Shown: positions 3,468 through 15,316 of the stretch, in pieces | How positions within the stretch are numbered: position 1 is the stretch's first letter | Layout: the number at the start of each line of letters is the position of its first letter | Assembly: GCA_015520865.1 (NCBI GenBank) | Contig: WAPE01000045.1 | Location: 1-28,245 of the forward strand | Direction of reading: 5' to 3' | Source: Candidatus Iainarchaeum sp. | GTDB taxonomy: Archaea > Iainarchaeota > Iainarchaeia > JAADDC01 | DNA: 28,245 nt | Translations under genes and position numbers: made by a program | The notes under the pieces: model-generated | What the model was told of the DNA's origin: nothing | Database searches by the model: none | Seen by the model: the letters and a program-made list of their open reading frames with translations, nothing else

Positions 3468-5706
3468 GGAGACCCCTCGCTATCGTTTCTCTACTCCAGG
3501 TCTCGAGCTCCTTCAGGAGCTTGTCCCAGTCGATCTCACCAAACTCCTCTAGGTGCTTTTCCTTTAGCAGTAAAAACCTGTTGTGGATGGGCACGTAGCT
3601 CTTTGCTTCTAGGAGCTCCGGAAGGTTCAGTTCATCGGCGAGCTTAACCACCATTTCCTTCTCTTTCGCCCTTGCGGCAATTTCCTTCCAGATCTCTTCG
3701 TATCCTATACCCCTTAGTCTCGAGATCTTTACCAATAGCTCGGAATTTCTTACGTTATCCTCGATGAGCTTTAGTTCATCCTCCTTTGCTGTATAAAGCA
3801 TGAGGTCTAGGAATCCTCCCTCCTGGTAGGGATCGCTCTTCCAGTGCTTCAGAACTTCCGTTATGGAAACCGTTCGCCGATGGCGCTTCAAAGAACCTGC
3901 AAAACGGATGGGAGCATTAACTACGATGATGTCCGTAGCCTTAAAGGACGTCGTCGGAACACCGAGGTCGTTTACTACCCTGTCCCAGACGGAGTAAGCT
4001 GAATCCCCGTGTATCGTACCCATAACGACGTTTCCAGCGGCTCCTACTCTCATAGCTTCATAAAGCACTAGGGCTTCCTTCGAACGCACTTCTCCTATCA
4101 CGATTGCCGAATCTCCGAGGCGAAGCGCCGTTCTTAGGGCATCCTCTGGAGGTAGCTCACCTGCAGAACCCCCTCCAATGGGGCTCTTCGTCTTCAGCCG
4201 TTGAATGTGGAACCCCACCTTTCGCATTTCTTCGACGGGGATTTCGAGGGTATCTTCCTGAACGATGATGCGCTGGTTCTGGGGGATTTCCAGCATTAAA
4301 GCCGTCATAAGGGATGTTTTTCCGGCTCCACGGCTTCCAGAGATGAGCATCGTTGCTTGCGAGTCTATGAAGAAGGAAAGGAGTCCAGCTGCCAACGGGT
4401 TAAGCATCTTTACCTTTACGAACTGCGGTAACGTCCAGGGGGTCGGTTTGTGAAGCCTGAAGGCAAATGCGATGCCGTCAGGAGAGAGGGGCGGTCCAAT
4501 GACAGCAACCCTCACGTGGAGGTCTGGAAGGTCGTAATCCAGAACGGGATGGGCCTCATCGAAGGGCCTCCCGCTCATGGAACGGAGTTTCGAAATAAAG
4601 GTCTTTGCCTCGTCCTCCGAGTAAACCACATTCGTCCTGCACTGACCGTACTGGGAATGTACAAGGTAAATAGGCTTCATTCCAAGGGGTGCATCGAGAT
4701 AAACGTCCGTTATCTTTCTGTCGAGGAAGAAGAGCTCCAGAACGCCGTATCCTACCGTGTACCTAGCTAAAATCTTTGATAGAAGCTCAATGTCTTCCTT
4801 CTCTAAACTCACCTTGAACCGTCGGGCCAAATCCATCACGGTGCTCTTGTACATTTCCTCAAACTGCTTCCTTGCGTAGGATTTTGAAGCTAGCAGGCTC
4901 CTGGCGGGGGTATATTTAGCAACGAGCTCCTTGGCCTTTTCCAAGATGAAGTACTGCTCCGGAGGGAGTGAAAACTCTGGAGCTTGAAGGTAGTAGAGCA
5001 TCTCAACGCTGGAGGGATCCTCATAGATGAGGACCTCCACATCTCCTTCGAGGGTATAGGAATCGACGAGCTCGAGCTCCTCCGGAAGCCCCGTAATAAT
5101 TCCCGATCCCAAAAAGGCGGGTTTCAGCTGGACAGGCAGTAAAATCCTGTAGATTCCCCTTCCTTCAGGGAGCTCCCTCGTTTGAAGAAGGTACTCCCTC
5201 GTCTTTGCTATGATCGTCGTGGCGTCCATAATCGTCTTGATCTTTTCCAGGATCTTCCTATACTTTTCGAAGCAGGGCTTAAATGCCTCCGGAGCGGCCT
5301 TCTCTCTTTCTTTTACGATCCTTAACTTCTTCAGAACCTCTAGATAGGCCTTGACAGGGTCGCTCATCCAGAGGTCGTGGGTCGTCTTTACTACCCATAC
5401 GTTTTCGTTCTTCAGAACCCTCTGGCAGGACTTTCCCAGCTTCTCCACGATGGAGAAGCTCCAGAATCCCTCATCCCTAAATACCTTAGCCGCCTTGGCG
5501 ATCTCCCTCAAGATACTCGTTGCTTTCTCGTCGTAGACGTGATCGTAAACGTCCGTTACGACAACGATGTCTGCATCGTTTTTCAATAGCTCCGAAACAA
5601 CCTTGAACATCGTTTCTGGATAATCTGCTACGGAGGCTCCCGTCGGCCAGTCCCGTGCATCTATGTAGAGAACCCTCTTACCACCAACAACCCTTACCTC
5701 TCCCAC
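3442..5706 (-). CDS. Type II/IV secretion (VirB11/PilB/TadA family) ATPase with long N-terminal extension
   Basis: Walker A SGSRGAGKTS, Asp box QEDTLE, Walker B IVIGEVR, His box MGTIHG. GTG start, TATA-like TTAAATA ending 21 nt upstream. Confidence 0.93.
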   Translation of the reverse strand: MGEVRVVGGKRVLYIDARDWPTGASVADYPETMFKVVSELLKNDADIVVVTDVYDHVYDEKATSILREIAKAAKVFRDEGFWSFSIVEKLGKSCQRVLKNENVWVVKTTHDLWMSDPVKAYLEVLKKLRIVKEREKAAPEAFKPCFEKYRKILEKIKTIMDATTIIAKTREYLLQTRELPEGRGIYRILLPVQLKPAFLGSGIITGLPEELELVDSYTLEGDVEVLIYEDPSSVEMLYYLQAPEFSLPPEQYFILEKAKELVAKYTPARSLLASKSYARKQFEEMYKSTVMDLARRFKVSLEKEDIELLSKILARYTVGYGVLELFFLDRKITDVYLDAPLGMKPIYLVHSQYGQCRTNVVYSEDEAKTFISKLRSMSGRPFDEAHPVLDYDLPDLHVRVAVIGPPLSPDGIAFAFRLHKPTPWTLPQFVKVKMLNPLAAGLLSFFIDSQATMLISGSRGAGKTSLMTALMLEIPQNQRIIVQEDTLEIPVEEMRKVGFHIQRLKTKSPIGGGSAGELPPEDALRTALRLGDSAIVIGEVRSKEALVLYEAMRVGAAGNVVMGTIHGDSAYSVWDRVVNDLGVPTTSFKATDIIVVNAPIRFAGSLKRHRRTVSITEVLKHWKSDPYQEGGFLDLMLYTAKEDELKLIEDNVRNSELLVKISRLRGIGYEEIWKEIAARAKEKEMVVKLADELNLPELLEAKSYVPIHNRFLLLKEKHLEEFGEIDWDKLLKELETWSRETIARGLLAEKGRNL

Positions 5707-8356: not shown

Positions 8357-8490
8357 GGGGCCGTGGCGCAGTCTGGCAGCGCGTCGGGCTCCAGAGTGTT
8401 CCTCTGGAGCGCAGAGGGCTTCCGATGAAGAACTTCGGGTCTGAACACGGAGAGACCCGAAGGTCCGGGGTTCGAATCCCCGCGGCCCCA
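8357..8490 (+). tRNA. trnW: tRNA-Trp(CCA) with 60-nt intron at 37/38; CCA end not encoded
   Basis: Acceptor stem GGGGCCG/CGGCCCC, D stem GCGC/GCGC, anticodon stem TCGGG/CCCGA, anticodon CCA at 8391-8393, T arm CGGGG-TTCGAAT-CCCCG. Intron 8395-8454 forms a canonical bulge-helix-bulge (CTCC/GGAG central helix, GTGTTC/GAACAC outer helix). Confidence 0.97.
8395..8454 (+). ncRNA. tRNA-Trp intron-encoded box C/D-like guide RNA
   Basis: CTCTGGAGC (8402-8410) complements the anticodon loop region and is followed by D'-like CAGA (8412-8415). C'-like ATGAAGA at 8425-8431. CTTCGGGT (8433-8440) complements positions 38-45 and is followed by CTGA (8441-8444). Guide introns in tRNA-Trp are established in euryarchaea. 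Confidence 0.75.
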
Positions 8491-11500: not shown

Positions 11501-13544
11501 TGTTGTCCGGATATCCTAGATCAACGTGAATCTTTATCCTTACGTTCTTCACAGAGAAGGCTCGTGAGGAGAGCGTGATAGTCGCCCCGTGCTCCCCTAT
11601 TTCGCCCTCTGGATCTGTCCAGACAACAGACATTCCATCCGGAATGAAGAGGTTGAAATCAACCATTCCCCTAAAGCCTACCTCGAAGTTTAGAATGTAA
11701 TCCTTCCCTGGCTGGAGGGATCCGACCTTCTTTCCGTCGGTGGATTTCACTCCGATGAACTTCACGTAGTCCTTCGTCTTTTCTGGGAAGTTTACCTCTA
11801 GGGTATAGCTATCAACGGAAGGAACGGCGTAGGGGCCTGCTTCGATTATTACGCCTCCGTAGTTGACGTCAACAACGACTCCGATAAGGGGAGGAACATC
11901 GATCTGAAACGTTCCATCGAGGCCCGTCATCCCGTTCCCAAGCTTGTACCCCCTCTCGTCATAAACGGTAACGATGGCCCCTGGCAGGGGCTTTCCACCT
12001 CGCTCAACGAGGATCGTGAGCGATACCTTCTGCTGGGCGAAATAGATAGGTACAACAACGGTGTTGTTTTCCGTGACGTTGAACTCGTCTGAAGAGGCAA
12101 CGGTTGAGAGGAACTCCGCTACAGCGGTGTAGCTTCCCACCGGAACTCCCTTGAAGGTTACTTCGCCCTTGACGTCGGTTGTTCCCTTGAAGCCCGTGTC
12201 GTTTCCAGAATCATCGACGAGATAAACCGTCGCGTTGGGTAGTGGATCATTTGTTGGACTGTAAACAACGACCTTCACGTTACCCCTCTTTATAACCCTC
12301 ACGAGACTTACCGTCTTTGATTCTCCGGTGCAGATCTTCCCCGAGTTGGACTCGTAGTTCTTAGCTGTCACGGTATAGGTTCCACAACCCTCCCCAGAGA
12401 GCTCTATGGTTGCCTTTCCGTTCTTCGCAGTTCGCTCTATCTTCTGTCCATTGAACGATAGAACGATCCTCGCCCCGTCGATGAGCTCCCCGGTATTAGC
12501 ATCCCTAACGGTGAACGAAACGCTGAATAGCTCCTTGGGTGTCTTGAGAACGAGATCAACGATCTGTGTATCCTGCAGAACCGTGAAGGGGGAGCCATCG
12601 ACGACTTCAGTAGCCACGTAGTGGTTGTTTAGCAGGACCTGAGCCGAGACGACCCGATAGGTTCCAATAGCCAGCCTTAAGGGAGTAGAAGCCCCTGCCC
12701 TGATCCTCACAGGTGTTCCGGTTCCAGGAGAGTTTACCGGGGCAATGTAGATCATTCCGTCGACGGGCTTGTCTATCTCGTCATAGGAGGCTTTTATGGT
12801 AACCGTCGCGAACCTCTGAGCCTCTACGACCTCTTCCTTCTTGGAAGAAGCCTTCACAAGGGTCAGTGTAATAAGGCTGGGTAGATCGGTGAGGGAGTAG
12901 CTCACGGTTTTCGTGCCATAGCCCTCCTTCGACGCTTCAAAAGTTATCTTAGAACCTGGTGACGCGAGGATGCAGCCCTTTGCCTTGACCTCGGTGAAGC
13001 ACACTTCAAAGTTACTTCCGCTGTCCGAAAATACCTCGGTACCATCTACAGAGATCGTCAGATGAGCATCCAAGGGAGCTCCATCTTGATCGACAATCTT
13101 CACCTTCGTGAAGTAGCGCTTGGGTTCGAGGATGATGTACGTCGCCTCTTCCTCCTTTCTCACGTTGCTAAACTGGTAACCCTCGTAGATGGCCCCCCTG
13201 AAGAGAACCTCTCTCCCTTCTATGACGATCTTTCCCTCGCTGTCGGTCGTAAAGACCTTCTTCACACCATCGACGACAAAGGTAGCCTTTACGCCTACCA
13301 GCGGGTTTCCGAGGGCGTCGGTGAAGTAGAAGATGTGGGTAGGAACCATAAACGCCGAATACAGCCACCATCCAAGGGCCAAAAGGACGGCAATTGTTAT
13401 CCCGGAGAAGAGGTAGAAGGTGTTGATTCCGTGGGATTCCAAGGGTCCTACGATCTTGTCTACCGGAATCCCTCGAGCCATGAGGCTGTCTAGGAAGGAG
13501 TAGTACGCATCCTCCAGCCGCTCGAGCAGCCCTTTAAGGTCCAT
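8511..13544 (-). CDS. Large (1677 aa) membrane-anchored surface protein with carboxypeptidase-regulatory-like/Ig-like repeats and an Asn/Cys-rich C-terminus
   Basis: Short N-terminal helical region, one TM (FYLFSGITIAVLLALGWWLYSAFMV), about six repeats starting with a D-x-x-G-x-P-L/V-like motif, and many N-x-S/T sequons. TTTATA 24 nt upstream of the ATG. Confidence 0.85.
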   Translation of the reverse strand: MDLKGLLERLEDAYYSFLDSLMARGIPVDKIVGPLESHGINTFYLFSGITIAVLLALGWWLYSAFMVPTHIFYFTDALGNPLVGVKATFVVDGVKKVFTTDSEGKIVIEGREVLFRGAIYEGYQFSNVRKEEEATYIILEPKRYFTKVKIVDQDGAPLDAHLTISVDGTEVFSDSGSNFEVCFTEVKAKGCILASPGSKITFEASKEGYGTKTVSYSLTDLPSLITLTLVKASSKKEEVVEAQRFATVTIKASYDEIDKPVDGMIYIAPVNSPGTGTPVRIRAGASTPLRLAIGTYRVVSAQVLLNNHYVATEVVDGSPFTVLQDTQIVDLVLKTPKELFSVSFTVRDANTGELIDGARIVLSFNGQKIERTAKNGKATIELSGEGCGTYTVTAKNYESNSGKICTGESKTVSLVRVIKRGNVKVVVYSPTNDPLPNATVYLVDDSGNDTGFKGTTDVKGEVTFKGVPVGSYTAVAEFLSTVASSDEFNVTENNTVVVPIYFAQQKVSLTILVERGGKPLPGAIVTVYDERGYKLGNGMTGLDGTFQIDVPPLIGVVVDVNYGGVIIEAGPYAVPSVDSYTLEVNFPEKTKDYVKFIGVKSTDGKKVGSLQPGKDYILNFEVGFRGMVDFNLFIPDGMSVVWTDPEGEIGEHGATITLSSRAFSVKNVRIKIHVDLGYPDNIATFTYAMEGNSYSVVLPVGKEFTCGDYLCYIFSIFDENGVEVGPGETLNALNSYTAKVAFRGSLEDEVNVMLVMQHSNGREEILGTYSGKVEKGKVYKIEANFYPLDEESLDFYLIAKAGKRVIEKDYLGTWSVYTPHFGPLFMDLNVIDAETNIVYPPGWFVRKRKLKVEYRVYDMDLNDPETPVSLTVYCDGKLLASTSGQTKGILSFYEDCMELNIVASAVGYEDAFDGRKAITAEDINVYPVDPYVILEKGKKVKRTLVIKGPLPGHISLSARYQNGCGLRVEINGKTAVFNWNSDACLGMGRREEIDALVLLDGIPLGKTYVPFYIQYGLFAKCLYIKRKVEGPSAGNGKFVITDIFDIKNNCSDLVVPLYLSELKLQPLYNSPEEENKISFLFPEDLEDINLEPGDEVNFSVTASIQTPVIIPEDYSYGIKVSFPVGVFGKEVFRQIFSHNLSAYNLCGPYITLKPKLGIQDYLLKADPTMSINKEEETFCQFREDSTFRILVELGYKWVAEKRSNKASETKVTWDTITITRPIDNIKPTFYFIVYDGPIEVASTSKRIMLANTADLSNNCPIKIDSSCNSNSCYDYLVAHLYKKCNDKDWEPLYLALLKVLRKNGIYLSENCNIAICYKNSSSCPPQSNGIPNPCASSNSSTSDPLVRALDLNRFYSYESKGNESNFQPVPLGRIIGVGSFFVKNDTFDKELGDLYQLSYLIAEVATDKACSTTTGNVQTCNINSLTSNNLLSPTGNAGKKSIDYEFLKNHPADGTVYGLKLNWVVVPYLSTLPDREDNLVTFGDNYVYFKNAGNGGFDINIVFDIDNQGCKYPGVFYEANVVPESVATENGRILEVVLHLVGKCSNLNNSNQSPRYLTLVKKAVENNLYDDLIIAALKPKDVTKNLLDNSNDNEIYGVFLNGNYKNDYEILGWYACCNNSGSNCSSNDCVCKNNHCVSPTNNSNCTSQVIQNLSNQPTLNNNNTLIWAINWSSLGCS

Positions 13545-13579
13545 TCGCTTAATATAACCTTTCTTCCCTATAAAAAGTT

Positions 13580-13635
13580 AGCGATGATGAGTGAATGGGC
13601 AGACCGACCGGTGAGGAGAAGGAGGTGAGCTGAGC
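13580..13635 (+). ncRNA. Box C/D small RNA (2'-O-methylation guide)
   Basis: Box C ATGATGA 13584-13590; 13-nt guide; D' CCGA 13604-13607; 3-nt spacer; C' GTGAGGA 13611-13617; 12-nt guide; box D CTGA 13630-13633. Canonical order and spacing, 50 nt from C to D. TATA-like TTAATATA at 13549-13556. Exact ends are uncertain. Confidence 0.8.
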
Positions 13636-14706
13636 ATATTCGCTGTTACCGTCGTCGGGGGAGGTATCGGCTCCTTTATCGCTAAAAGGCTTTCCGAGAT
13701 GGGATGGAAGGTAGAGCTCTACGAGAAAAACCCAAATAGACATGTAACCTGCGGAGGTCTTGTTAGTAACGACACACTCCTAGATTTCCCGTTCCTCGAA
13801 GAGTATGTCATCAACCGTATCGACGGCGCGATTATATCGGCGGGAGAAGAATCTATAACCGTCGAGCGGCGTGGGGTGGCCTGGGTTCTCAACAGGGATG
13901 AAATGTTTAGAGGTATGATCGAATCGGCGGTTTCCAGTGGCGTGGAGGTAAAGGAAGAGGTGTGGACGCCAGAAAAAGGTTCTGGAAGGGTTTTGGTGGG
14001 AGCCGATGGAGCGCTTTCTTCCGTAAGGAGCTTGGTAACGTCGGAAAACCCCACCTACATCCTTGGTTATCAGGGAATTGCCCGCTGGAAGGAGGACGAT
14101 CACCTTGTTAGGGTAGATTTTGGCGAATGGGGCCCAAACTTCTTTGGATGGGTTATTCCATTGGGAGACGGAGCCGCCCACGTCGGAGTCGGAGTTCCCC
14201 TTGAAAGATCCGGGCTAGCCCATCAACTCCTTCTTAAGTATGCCAACTACCTCGGTGTTGAGGTCAAAAAAGAAGAAGGGCGACTTATTCCGGTATCCAG
14301 GCCGTTGAAGATGGTCGCCCGAGGCAACACTCTTTTAATAGGCGATGCAGCGGTCCACGTGAAAGCATCAACCGGTGGAGGATTGGCATACGGGCTTAAA
14401 GGAGCAGCAACTGCCGCAGAGGTTATAAACCGTTTTCTCGGGGACGAAGGAAAGCTAGAAGAGTATAATACCGTCCACAGAAAGCACTTTCTACCGAAAC
14501 TAAAGCTCCACTGGTTCATTCACAGGTTCTACAACGAGGCAGACCTTCCTAATTTACTTAAACAGCTTCAGGAGGGTGGTTTGGTCGAGGAGTTATCGAA
14601 AAAGGGCTCTATGGACGATCCTTCCTTCTTCCTCTCACTGCGCTTCCTTCCTCTTATCTTCCGAACCTTCGGTCCCTTCGTGAGAACTCTTCCAGAACTG
14701 CTCTAA
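13636..14706 (+). CDS. Geranylgeranyl reductase family flavoprotein (DGGGPL reductase-like), probable non-canonical start
   Basis: TCGGLVS, GADGALS, FFGWVIP and IGDAAVHVKASTGGGLAYG motifs. The frame extends upstream of ATG 13699 to include the FAD-binding strand FAVTVVGGGIGS, but an in-frame TGA at 13612 leaves only CTG 13630 or ATA 13636 as candidate starts. Confidence 0.8.
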   Translation: MFAVTVVGGGIGSFIAKRLSEMGWKVELYEKNPNRHVTCGGLVSNDTLLDFPFLEEYVINRIDGAIISAGEESITVERRGVAWVLNRDEMFRGMIESAVSSGVEVKEEVWTPEKGSGRVLVGADGALSSVRSLVTSENPTYILGYQGIARWKEDDHLVRVDFGEWGPNFFGWVIPLGDGAAHVGVGVPLERSGLAHQLLLKYANYLGVEVKKEEGRLIPVSRPLKMVARGNTLLIGDAAVHVKASTGGGLAYGLKGAATAAEVINRFLGDEGKLEEYNTVHRKHFLPKLKLHWFIHRFYNEADLPNLLKQLQEGGLVEELSKKGSMDDPSFFLSLRFLPLIFRTFGPFVRTLPELL

Positions 14707-15316
14707 AATCACTTATCTCCATCTCCGGCCAGAGCTTTGGGTAAAAGATGAACTCCGCATAGGCGGACTGAAGCGGTAAAAACCCGCTCAGCCGTTCTTC
14801 CCCAGAGGTCCTTACAACGAGGTCCACGTCGGGGAAGTCCGGCAGGTAGAAGTATTTCCTGAGATCTTCGTAGCTGTTGGGGTTTTTTGCTAATCTCGCT
14901 GCTCTAACAACTTCGTAAACACCTGAATAGCCAACTAAAAGCCCAACTTTCGGCCAATTCCCTTCGCTCTCCCTTTCTACCCTTTTCATGAGATCCACGA
15001 GCTCTCTGGGAAGGAGGTTTAATTCTCCTCCAAAGCGGAACTCCGCCTCGGGCCTTTTCTCGAGGAATTCGAGGAGCTTCTTTTTGAGGAGCTTGAATAG
15101 GAGTGATAATTCTGCTTTCGATCTCCTTTGAAGGTTTTCCAGCGAGAGGGTGTAGAAGTACACGTATTTTATCTTTGTTTCCTCTTTTAGAAACCGAAGG
15201 GCCATCTCTGCCTTCTGAATGCCTCTTTTGTAGGCCTCGAAAAGGGAAATACCGTGTTTCTTGGCGTAGCGCCGATTTCCGTCGGGAATAATACCAACGG
15301 CCTTTGGATCCCCCAT
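14654..15316 (-). CDS. uppS: cis-prenyltransferase (undecaprenyl/polyprenyl diphosphate synthase family)
   Basis: AVGIIPDGNRRYA, FYTLSLENLQR, DLVVRTSGEERLSGFLPLQSAYAE and WPE motifs. Confidence 0.95.
   Translation of the reverse strand: MGDPKAVGIIPDGNRRYAKKHGISLFEAYKRGIQKAEMALRFLKEETKIKYVYFYTLSLENLQRRSKAELSLLFKLLKKKLLEFLEKRPEAEFRFGGELNLLPRELVDLMKRVERESEGNWPKVGLLVGYSGVYEVVRAARLAKNPNSYEDLRKYFYLPDFPDVDLVVRTSGEERLSGFLPLQSAYAEFIFYPKLWPEMEISDFRAVLEEFSRRDRRFGR

Follow-up and report, generated by a model that had tools for sequence, protein, structure and literature searches.

A box C/D sRNA of a DPANN archaeal family that probably guides methylation of the 16S anti-Shine-Dalgarno tail

In the 28,245-nucleotide stretch of Candidatus Iainarchaeum sp. 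DNA that we analysed (hereafter the window), we examined a short element with the layout of an archaeal box C/D sRNA, whose D guide is complementary to the 3ʹ end of 16S rRNA. We consider it likely that the element is a working guide sRNA directed at C1535 (E. coli numbering), that its Dʹ guide is probably addressed to helix 44, and that in the genus of the host the D guide serves in addition as the Shine-Dalgarno (SD) sequence of a reductase reading frame. This reading is built on the architecture of the element, on its complementarity to the anti-SD, on its conservation irrespective of the genes that surround it, and on the protein machinery encoded in the same genome; the methylation, the identity of the Dʹ target, the co-transcription with the reductase and the use of a non-canonical start codon are the parts that we infer from these observations.

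Architecture and conservation of the sRNA

The coordinates of the element and of its neighbourhood are collected in Table 1. The two internal boxes, Dʹ and Cʹ, each depart from the consensus by one mismatch (CCGA and GUGAGGA) and are separated by a spacer of 3 nt. The generic C/D models of Rfam, applied at permissive thresholds, aligned end to end with positions 13580-13635 for a dozen archaeal families. The best of them, sR1 (RF01152), reached 34 bits (E 3e-7) against a gathering threshold of 45 bits, and its match rests on the boxes, with the guides in a different register; we therefore rejected the element as a member of sR1, and the sub-threshold match is a generic C/D likeness. At gathering thresholds, Rfam reported no C/D family in the whole window and a tRNA only. 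This tRNA, located at 8357-8490 on the plus strand, scored 55.9 bits and is spread over 134 nt, presumably owing to a long intron; ARAGORN reported no tRNA in the window.

Table 1. Coordinates (window numbering) of the sRNA, its boxes and guides, and the adjoining features
Feature	Position	Strand	Remark
Box C/D sRNA, whole unit with GC/GC ends	13581..13635	+	reads as a textbook archaeal C/D sRNA
TATA-like box TTAATATAA	13549..13557	+	about 27 nt 5ʹ of the sRNA start
C box AUGAUGA	13584..13590	+	unchanged across 11 homologues
Dʹ guide GTGAATGGGCAGA, 13 nt	13591..13603	+	candidate target 16S 1399-1408
Dʹ box CCGA	13604..13607	+	CUGA in the sister genus
Cʹ box GUGAGGA	13611..13617	+	canonical GUGAUGA in the sister genus
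D guide GAAGGAGGTGAG, 12 nt	13618..13629	+	complements 16S 1532-1541; probably also the SD of the reductase
D box CUGA	13630..13633	+	invariant in homologues
FAD-dependent reductase-like ORF	13636..14706	+	abuts the sRNA; weak Pfam hits

The host genome (G000; 115 contigs, approximately 600 kb, 79% complete) encodes the proteins of a C/D particle, namely fibrillarin (E 1e-82), a Nop-domain protein (Nop5, E 3e-72) and a member of the L7Ae family (E 1e-23). A strict C/D pattern found 10 elements in this 600-kb genome and none in 5 shuffles of it.

Upstream of the sRNA, a TATA-like element is located 24-33 nt from its 5ʹ end in 10 of the 11 aligned homologues, and approximately 31-40 nt from it in the remaining one (G006). 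Since this box is kept in front of the aligned homologues, the sRNA appears to have its own promoter, and TTAATATAA is most probably the promoter of the sRNA and, in the host genus, also of the reductase transcript. The gap of 36 nt (13545-13580) between the sRNA and the divergent gene, which encodes a 1677-residue surface protein on the minus strand (ATG at 13544), contains two TATA-like boxes; TATAAAAA (13569-13576) is positioned for a leaderless transcript of the surface-protein gene, and the two boxes look like crossed divergent promoters.

Homologues of the sRNA were found in 12 of the 14 genomes of one DPANN family (Ca. Iainarchaeum / Micrarchaeota), distributed over two genera; no homologue was found in the other two genomes of the family, G008 (87% complete) and G013 (68% complete). 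A BLAST search of the region against 60 relatives gave matches in nine genomes, all of the same family, and in seven of these the match comprised essentially the 55-nt sRNA alone, extending into the reductase gene in the two closest relatives. Between the two genera, the 40 nt on each side of the sRNA are 23-30% identical.

In the alignment, which included 11 of the 12 homologues, the boxes and both guide cores were invariant, except that G001 has an additional A in its Dʹ core. The Dʹ core reads TGAA(C/T)GGGCAG. All but one of the 12 homologues share the 10-nt core AAGGAGGTGA of the D guide without change, and in the D guide of the aligned sequences only the first and the last base vary. The variable sites are the guide base beside each box, the 5ʹ-most guide base, the spacer and one position each of the Dʹ and Cʹ boxes; the variation thus sits at positions that an sRNP tolerates. 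Two homologues deviate further: in G003 the D guide is shortened to 10 nt, which moves the predicted target to C1536, and G004 has degenerate Dʹ and Cʹ boxes and lacks an AUH codon after the sRNA.

A loose pattern for an anti-SD guide (a Cʹ box, GGAGGTGA in the guide, and a D box) was matched by this family alone among 215 genomes of the class, and the reversed control pattern gave no match in the same 215 genomes. Fibrillarin is present throughout the class; therefore, the absence of the pattern outside the family is not due to missing machinery. When one genome each of approximately 186,000 species was searched, the exact design was found on nine contigs only, all of them from metagenome-assembled DPANN genomes of this group. 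A version of the pattern shifted toward G1530 (AGGTGATC) had two sporadic matches in the 215 genomes versus one in the control, and a scan of metagenomes returned nothing beyond contigs identical to the known sister-genus loci and one chance-like match devoid of a Dʹ box.

Predicted pairing of the two guides with 16S rRNA

The original prediction, made from the window alone, was that the D guide at 13618-13629 contains a complement of the conserved 16S 3ʹ end, that the base next to box D is left unpaired, and that the rule of the fifth nucleotide upstream of box D selects the first C after UCA. The complement, AGGAGGTGA (13620-13628), is present as described. The 16S gene of the host was found outside the window, on contig C115 (L001), and its 3ʹ end reads ...GGAUCACCUCCUUUGG (also given as ...CCUGCGGACGGAUCACCUCCUUUGG), so that the pairing could be drawn with the host's own rRNA. 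The D guide forms 10 Watson-Crick pairs and one G-U pair with AUCACCUCCUUU of the host pre-16S, and 9 bp with 16S of mature length in the relatives. G13629, beside box D, is located opposite A1531 and is unpaired, and the fifth guide base from the box, G13625, forms a Watson-Crick pair with C1535. All three elements of the prediction were thus borne out by the host sequence, and the pairing suggests that the D guide directs 2ʹ-O-methylation of C1535.

The original prediction had also named a better-matching target elsewhere as the finding that would speak against it. In the host 16S, and in the SSU and LSU of two relatives, the anti-SD gave the best duplex with the D guide: in the host SSU the energy was -18.5 kcal/mol, versus -11.2 kcal/mol at the next best site, and in the SSU and LSU of the two relatives the anti-SD gave -16.3 to -18.5 kcal/mol, versus -13.8 to -14.4 kcal/mol. 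Other guides in the host genome also pair with rRNA over 9-11 bp, and the duplex of the D guide is therefore typical of a real guide. A random single 12-mer finds an equally long match somewhere in SSU and LSU in approximately 3% of cases, and thus one genome taken alone is weak evidence. The match to the anti-SD was, however, present in every genome for which 16S was available.

The same observation bears on the possibility that the real target of the D guide is another RNA (the host 23S, a tRNA or an mRNA) and that the anti-SD match is incidental, which we consider very unlikely. The 23S gene is missing from the host assembly, and tRNA-Val(GAC) gives a run of nine positions (eight pairs and one G-U); in the two 23S sequences of the family, however, no match exceeds nine positions even when G-U pairs are included, and the energies are weaker by 2.5-4 kcal/mol. 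AGGAGGTGA occurs only 12 times in the genome when both strands are counted, two of these in C/D guides. We discarded the genome-wide matches of the D guide, which are mostly antisense strands of the SD sequences of other genes and are uninformative.

The target of the Dʹ guide could be assigned less firmly. Its core complements CUGCCCGU, that is 16S 1399-1406, by eight contiguous pairs, which is approximately the median for random 12-mers. The pairing can be extended to 10 bp over 1399-1408, reaching C1407-A1408, only if one guide base is bulged; the proposed bulge is also where the only changes of length or sequence in this part of the guide are found, namely the extra A in G001 and an A-to-T change in G003. 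The site belongs to the top of helix 44, and C1402 would be the nucleotide selected by the fifth-nucleotide rule. Within the SSU, the 1399-1408 site ranked first among the Dʹ duplexes in G000 and G006 and second in G003, and sites in the LSU of G006 equal it. A search of the host 16S for a contiguous Dʹ target found no site with at least 7 Watson-Crick pairs and at most 3 mismatches, and no target was found among the tRNAs (best score 5.5). We also noticed that 16S of the family has U at E. coli position 1400 (CACACUGCCCGUCA; L001, L031-L034), where C is nearly universal, and that the neighbouring family (G015) has A there; the Dʹ guide carries an A that matches the family-specific U1400. We regard C1402 as a candidate only.

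A site in a protein-coding gene was considered as well. Positions 689-701 of contig C8 of the host genome (plus strand), which correspond to the HLPVQSG codons of an MtaB-like radical-SAM gene, are complementary to the sister-genus Dʹ guide at 13 of 13 positions, and to the host Dʹ guide at 11 of 13 (10 Watson-Crick pairs and one G-U). We dismissed this site as a chance match within these conserved codons; the 11-mer with one mismatch occurs at the control frequency in the sister-genus genomes.

Guide and Shine-Dalgarno sequence in different gene contexts

Any SD sequence complements the anti-SD, and therefore the host genus alone cannot separate a guide from an SD. The ORF that abuts the sRNA belongs, by its weak Pfam hits, to the geranylgeranyl-reductase/lycopene-cyclase superfamily. 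Its frame is closed upstream by the TGA at 13612-13614, inside the Cʹ box, and the stretch that leads from this TGA to the Rossmann motif (VVGGGIGS) is free of ATG, GTG and TTG; the first ATG of the ORF, at 13699, falls after the dinucleotide-binding motif. The ATA at 13636 is therefore the candidate start codon. GGTGA of the D guide ends 7 nt before this ATA, which is the only codon at a proper spacing; across the genome the distance from GGTGA to the start codon peaks at 4-7 nt. AUA, AUU and AUC are poor start codons. At the loci compared for this codon (L003, L004, L005, L011 and L067), the triplet directly after the sRNA, ATA in the host, is ATA, ATT, ATC and ATA in four relatives and TTT in G004. 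The pattern suggests that initiation is assisted by the SD and takes place at AUH, or else at an in-frame CUG one or two codons before the ATA, which is a less well spaced alternative.

In the host genus, neither a T-run nor a promoter was found between the sRNA and the reductase ORF, and from this we would expect the two to be co-transcribed. The guide is located at SD distance from the ORF in five of the six genomes of this genus. As the reductase is devoid of an ATG, GTG or TTG start, the D guide probably doubles as its SD. At its other end, the reductase ORF overlaps by 53 nt (14654-14706) with a convergent gene on the minus strand (14654-15316) that encodes a cis-prenyltransferase of the UPP-synthase family (E 4e-49); the two form a small lipid-related gene pair.

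The sister genus presents a different arrangement. In four genomes, a T-run and a TATA box come after the sRNA, and then a pilin-like gene whose ATG, approximately 55 nt downstream of the sRNA, is provided with a separate GAGGTGA; in two further genomes unrelated sequence follows. The orthologue of the reductase is located approximately 1.5 kb away in this genus, where it starts at GTG or ATG and has a TATA-like box to itself. Despite the absence of a directly following gene, AAGGAGGTGA is unchanged in all six sister-genus genomes. The question raised with the original prediction, whether the guide persists in homologous sRNAs that have no gene directly behind them, is thus answered in the affirmative, and a guide that is unchanged in all contexts must be kept for something besides the translation of the next gene. 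The two arrangements are most simply read as the result of a deletion that joined the sRNA and the reductase; the latter would now be expressed by read-through, with the guide as its SD and a near-cognate AUH codon as its start.

These observations bear directly on the possibility that the element is the SD of the reductase and nothing else, the D guide being an orphan that has no rRNA function. Its location at SD distance in most of the host genus would agree with this, as would the situation in Pyrobaculum, where most guides whose sequence runs into the beginning of an ORF no longer have a target, 12% of them keeping one (PMC6009581). It is, however, hard to reconcile with the invariance of the same 10 nt in the six sister-genus genomes, where the next start is far off and has an SD of its own or no gene follows, and with the anti-SD guide of a second sRNA, described below, whose distance of 14 nt to the nearest ATG is too large for an SD. 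We consider this explanation highly unlikely. The original prediction had left undecided whether the element is only an SD, only a guide, or both: both is the best reading for the host genus, and the first option is largely refuted by the sister-genus context.

The second sRNA with an anti-SD guide was found on contig C12 of the host genome (approximately 3800-3860, minus strand; L061), and is kept in G005 and G002. It is a canonical C/D sRNA with the order GTGATGA, a 12-nt Dʹ guide AGGAGGTGAACG, CTGA, a 7-nt spacer, ATGATGA, a 12-nt D guide AGCCCTCTAGCA and CTGA. Here it is the Dʹ guide, (A/G)GGAGGTGAA.., that pairs with 16S 1532-1540, in a register that predicts C1533 as the target; the D guide AGCCCTCTAGCA had no match in rRNA. 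This sRNA is in frame with an ORF encoding an ASCH domain, and its Cʹ box supplies the ATG ATG of that ORF.

Ribosome maturation and comparison with known systems

The family that carries the sRNA differs from most of its class in its RsmA/Dim1. A canonical RsmA/Dim1 (PF00398, E below 1e-20) was found in 175 of the 215 genomes of the class and in none of the 14 genomes of this family; in three neighbouring families the counts were 0 of 2, 0 of 7 and 0 of 3. Weak matches of one type (type A) to PF00398 in the family are not Dim1 and were set aside as protein-isoaspartate methyltransferases. A homologue of RsmA/Dim1 adjoins the DUF655 gene (G000, C13:2171-2863, plus strand, L073; orthologues L074-L086); it has 220-250 residues, and its profile matches RsmA/Dim1 structures only (E 9e-11). 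In all 13 sequences, AFPGFIF stands in place of the EIGxGxG SAM loop and is followed by a deletion of seven residues, and EPDY, EAPP or ETPP occupies the place of the NxPY-type catalytic motif. Judged by these motifs, the protein looks catalytically dead, a parallel to Nanoarchaeum, where Dim1 is absent; this can only be inferred, because the Sulfolobales have a Dim1 that is short and divergent and yet active.

The 16S 3ʹ tail of the host can form a hairpin with the trailer of the precursor, GGAUC-A-CCUCC UUU GGAGG-AA-GAUCC (-14.1 kcal/mol; L001, G000:C115, 295-270, minus strand), in which GGAUCACC(UCC), the anti-SD, is buried. Similar hairpins were found in three sister-genus genomes, and nothing comparable in four other families of the class. 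A competing binder of the anti-SD could therefore matter. This, together with the apparently inactive Dim1 homologue, would be compatible with a particle that binds the anti-SD tail, and perhaps helix 44, in the absence of productive methylation, and whose role would be to chaperone or time the assembly, or to mask the anti-SD reversibly on pre-30S or 30S particles. Efficient C/D methylation usually needs a spacing of 12 nt, and the 10-nt guide of G003 falls under it. On the other hand, catalysis needs a Watson-Crick pair at the fifth position, where this sRNA has a G-C, and a canonical spacing of the boxes, which 11 of the 12 homologues show; the equivalent guide of Nanoarchaeum equitans does yield a methylated nucleotide. 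Binding and methylation are, moreover, not mutually exclusive. The paper on the N. equitans guide, sR13, stresses a role as an assembly checkpoint (PMC5389701), which would suit binding on its own; weighing these points, we think it unlikely that the particle only binds.

Thus, a guide sRNA that methylates C1535 remains our preferred reading, and its action could be pictured as follows. The sRNA would be transcribed from its own TATA promoter and would assemble with L7Ae, Nop5 and fibrillarin; its D guide would pair with 16S 1532-1540/41, which would place the 2ʹ-OH of C1535 in the active site of fibrillarin, and its Dʹ guide would probably pair with the top of helix 44 (1399-1408, target C1402). 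Late in the maturation of the 30S subunit, one particle could in this way hold the 3ʹ tail together with the strand of the decoding centre, a role that has been proposed for sR13 of N. equitans. In the host genus, a rearrangement would have set the sRNA in front of a lipid-reductase ORF that has neither its own promoter nor a canonical start, and in read-through transcripts the same 10 nt would serve as the SD of the reductase, 7 nt before AUA, AUU or AUC.

A more far-reaching picture can be drawn from the same material, which we offer as speculation and consider doubtful as a whole. A second, independent DPANN lineage may have exchanged the Dim1/RsmA checkpoint for an RNA-guided one, in which Dim1 would persist as a non-catalytic binder, one or two sRNPs would clamp and methylate the anti-SD (C1535, C1533) and the decoding strand in competition with the trailer hairpin, and the guide would have been co-opted as the SD of the reductase at AUH. 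If this were true, each transcript would either become an sRNP or be translated, and ribosome maturation would be coupled to lipid synthesis.

Guide-RNA methylation of the anti-SD tail is so far on record for a single pair of organisms, Nanoarchaeum and Ignicoccus, where it was proposed as a stand-in for the otherwise universal Dim1/RsmA checkpoint (PMC5389701). The same design in another DPANN family, whose Dim1 homologue is devoid of the cofactor and catalytic motifs, would be a second natural replicate for that hypothesis. The fusion of the sRNA with the reductase would furthermore be a clean natural case of one 10-nt string used both as an rRNA guide and as the ribosome-binding site of an mRNA, and it suggests SD-assisted initiation at AUA, AUU or AUC in an archaeon.

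Among known guides, the eukaryotic snR70 and SNORD43 direct the formation of Cm1639 (yeast) and Cm1703 (human), at positions that correspond to E. coli C1402. They resemble the Dʹ half of our sRNA in being guides for the universally modified decoding-centre cytidine that is the candidate Dʹ target here; they differ in that our assignment consists of eight contiguous pairs and a bulge, and is a candidate.

The overlap of a guide with the beginning of a gene has a parallel in Pyrobaculum, where the 'category 1' C/D sRNAs overlap the 5ʹ ends of protein genes in sense (Lui et al. 2018, PMC6009581). As would probably hold in our case too, the sRNA is co-transcribed with the downstream mRNA, the start codon is located in or just after the Cʹ box or the D guide, and the question of excision versus translation arises. 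The difference is in the fate of the rRNA target, which is usually lost there by the overlapping guide, whereas in the host the guide and the mRNA signal are compatible, because the target is the anti-SD itself.

In Ignicoccus hospitalis, which has an active RsmA, Cm1533 was found in the anti-SD, with no known guide (PMC5389701); the second sRNA of our host, on contig C12, predicts exactly C1533. The closest counterpart of the sRNA described here is sR13 of N. equitans, which addresses 16S at 1405-1415 with its Dʹ guide (Am1408) and at 1531-1540 with its D guide (Seistrup et al. 2017, NAR 45:2007, PMC5389701); Am1534, inside the N. equitans anti-SD, was demonstrated by MALDI-MS and RiboMeth-seq (PMC5389701). 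The D guide of sR13 is GAGGAGGTGATA before CUGA (Dennis et al. 2015, PMC4644070, supplement). Both are double-guide C/D sRNAs with a D guide containing AGGAGGUGA that pairs with the 16S anti-SD, the Dʹ guide of sR13 pairs with the top of helix 44, at the decoding site, where the candidate site of ours is also located, and both hosts are tiny-genome DPANN archaea, N. equitans without a working RsmA/Dim1 and ours with a homologue that may be inactive. The differences are that AGGAGGTGA of sR13 is one base further from the box, which selects A1534 instead of C1535 (C1536 in G003); that its Dʹ guide is directed at 1405-1415, whereas here it is of another sequence, with 1399-1408 as the candidate site; that N. 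equitans has no Dim1 gene at all, whereas the family described here keeps a degenerate homologue; and that sR13 has not been reported to serve as an SD. Homology of the two sRNAs cannot be established, because the bases that they share are imposed by the target. The original prediction had suggested that a guide aimed at the anti-SD could tune SD-led versus leaderless translation; by analogy, the precedent of sR13 argues for a role in late 30S maturation instead. The sRNA of the host is thus of the same design as sR13 with the register shifted by one base, and the idea already has an experimental precedent, to which our analysis of the sequences would add a guide that probably doubles as an SD in front of a non-canonical start codon, a second anti-SD guide, and a Dim1 that appears degenerate.
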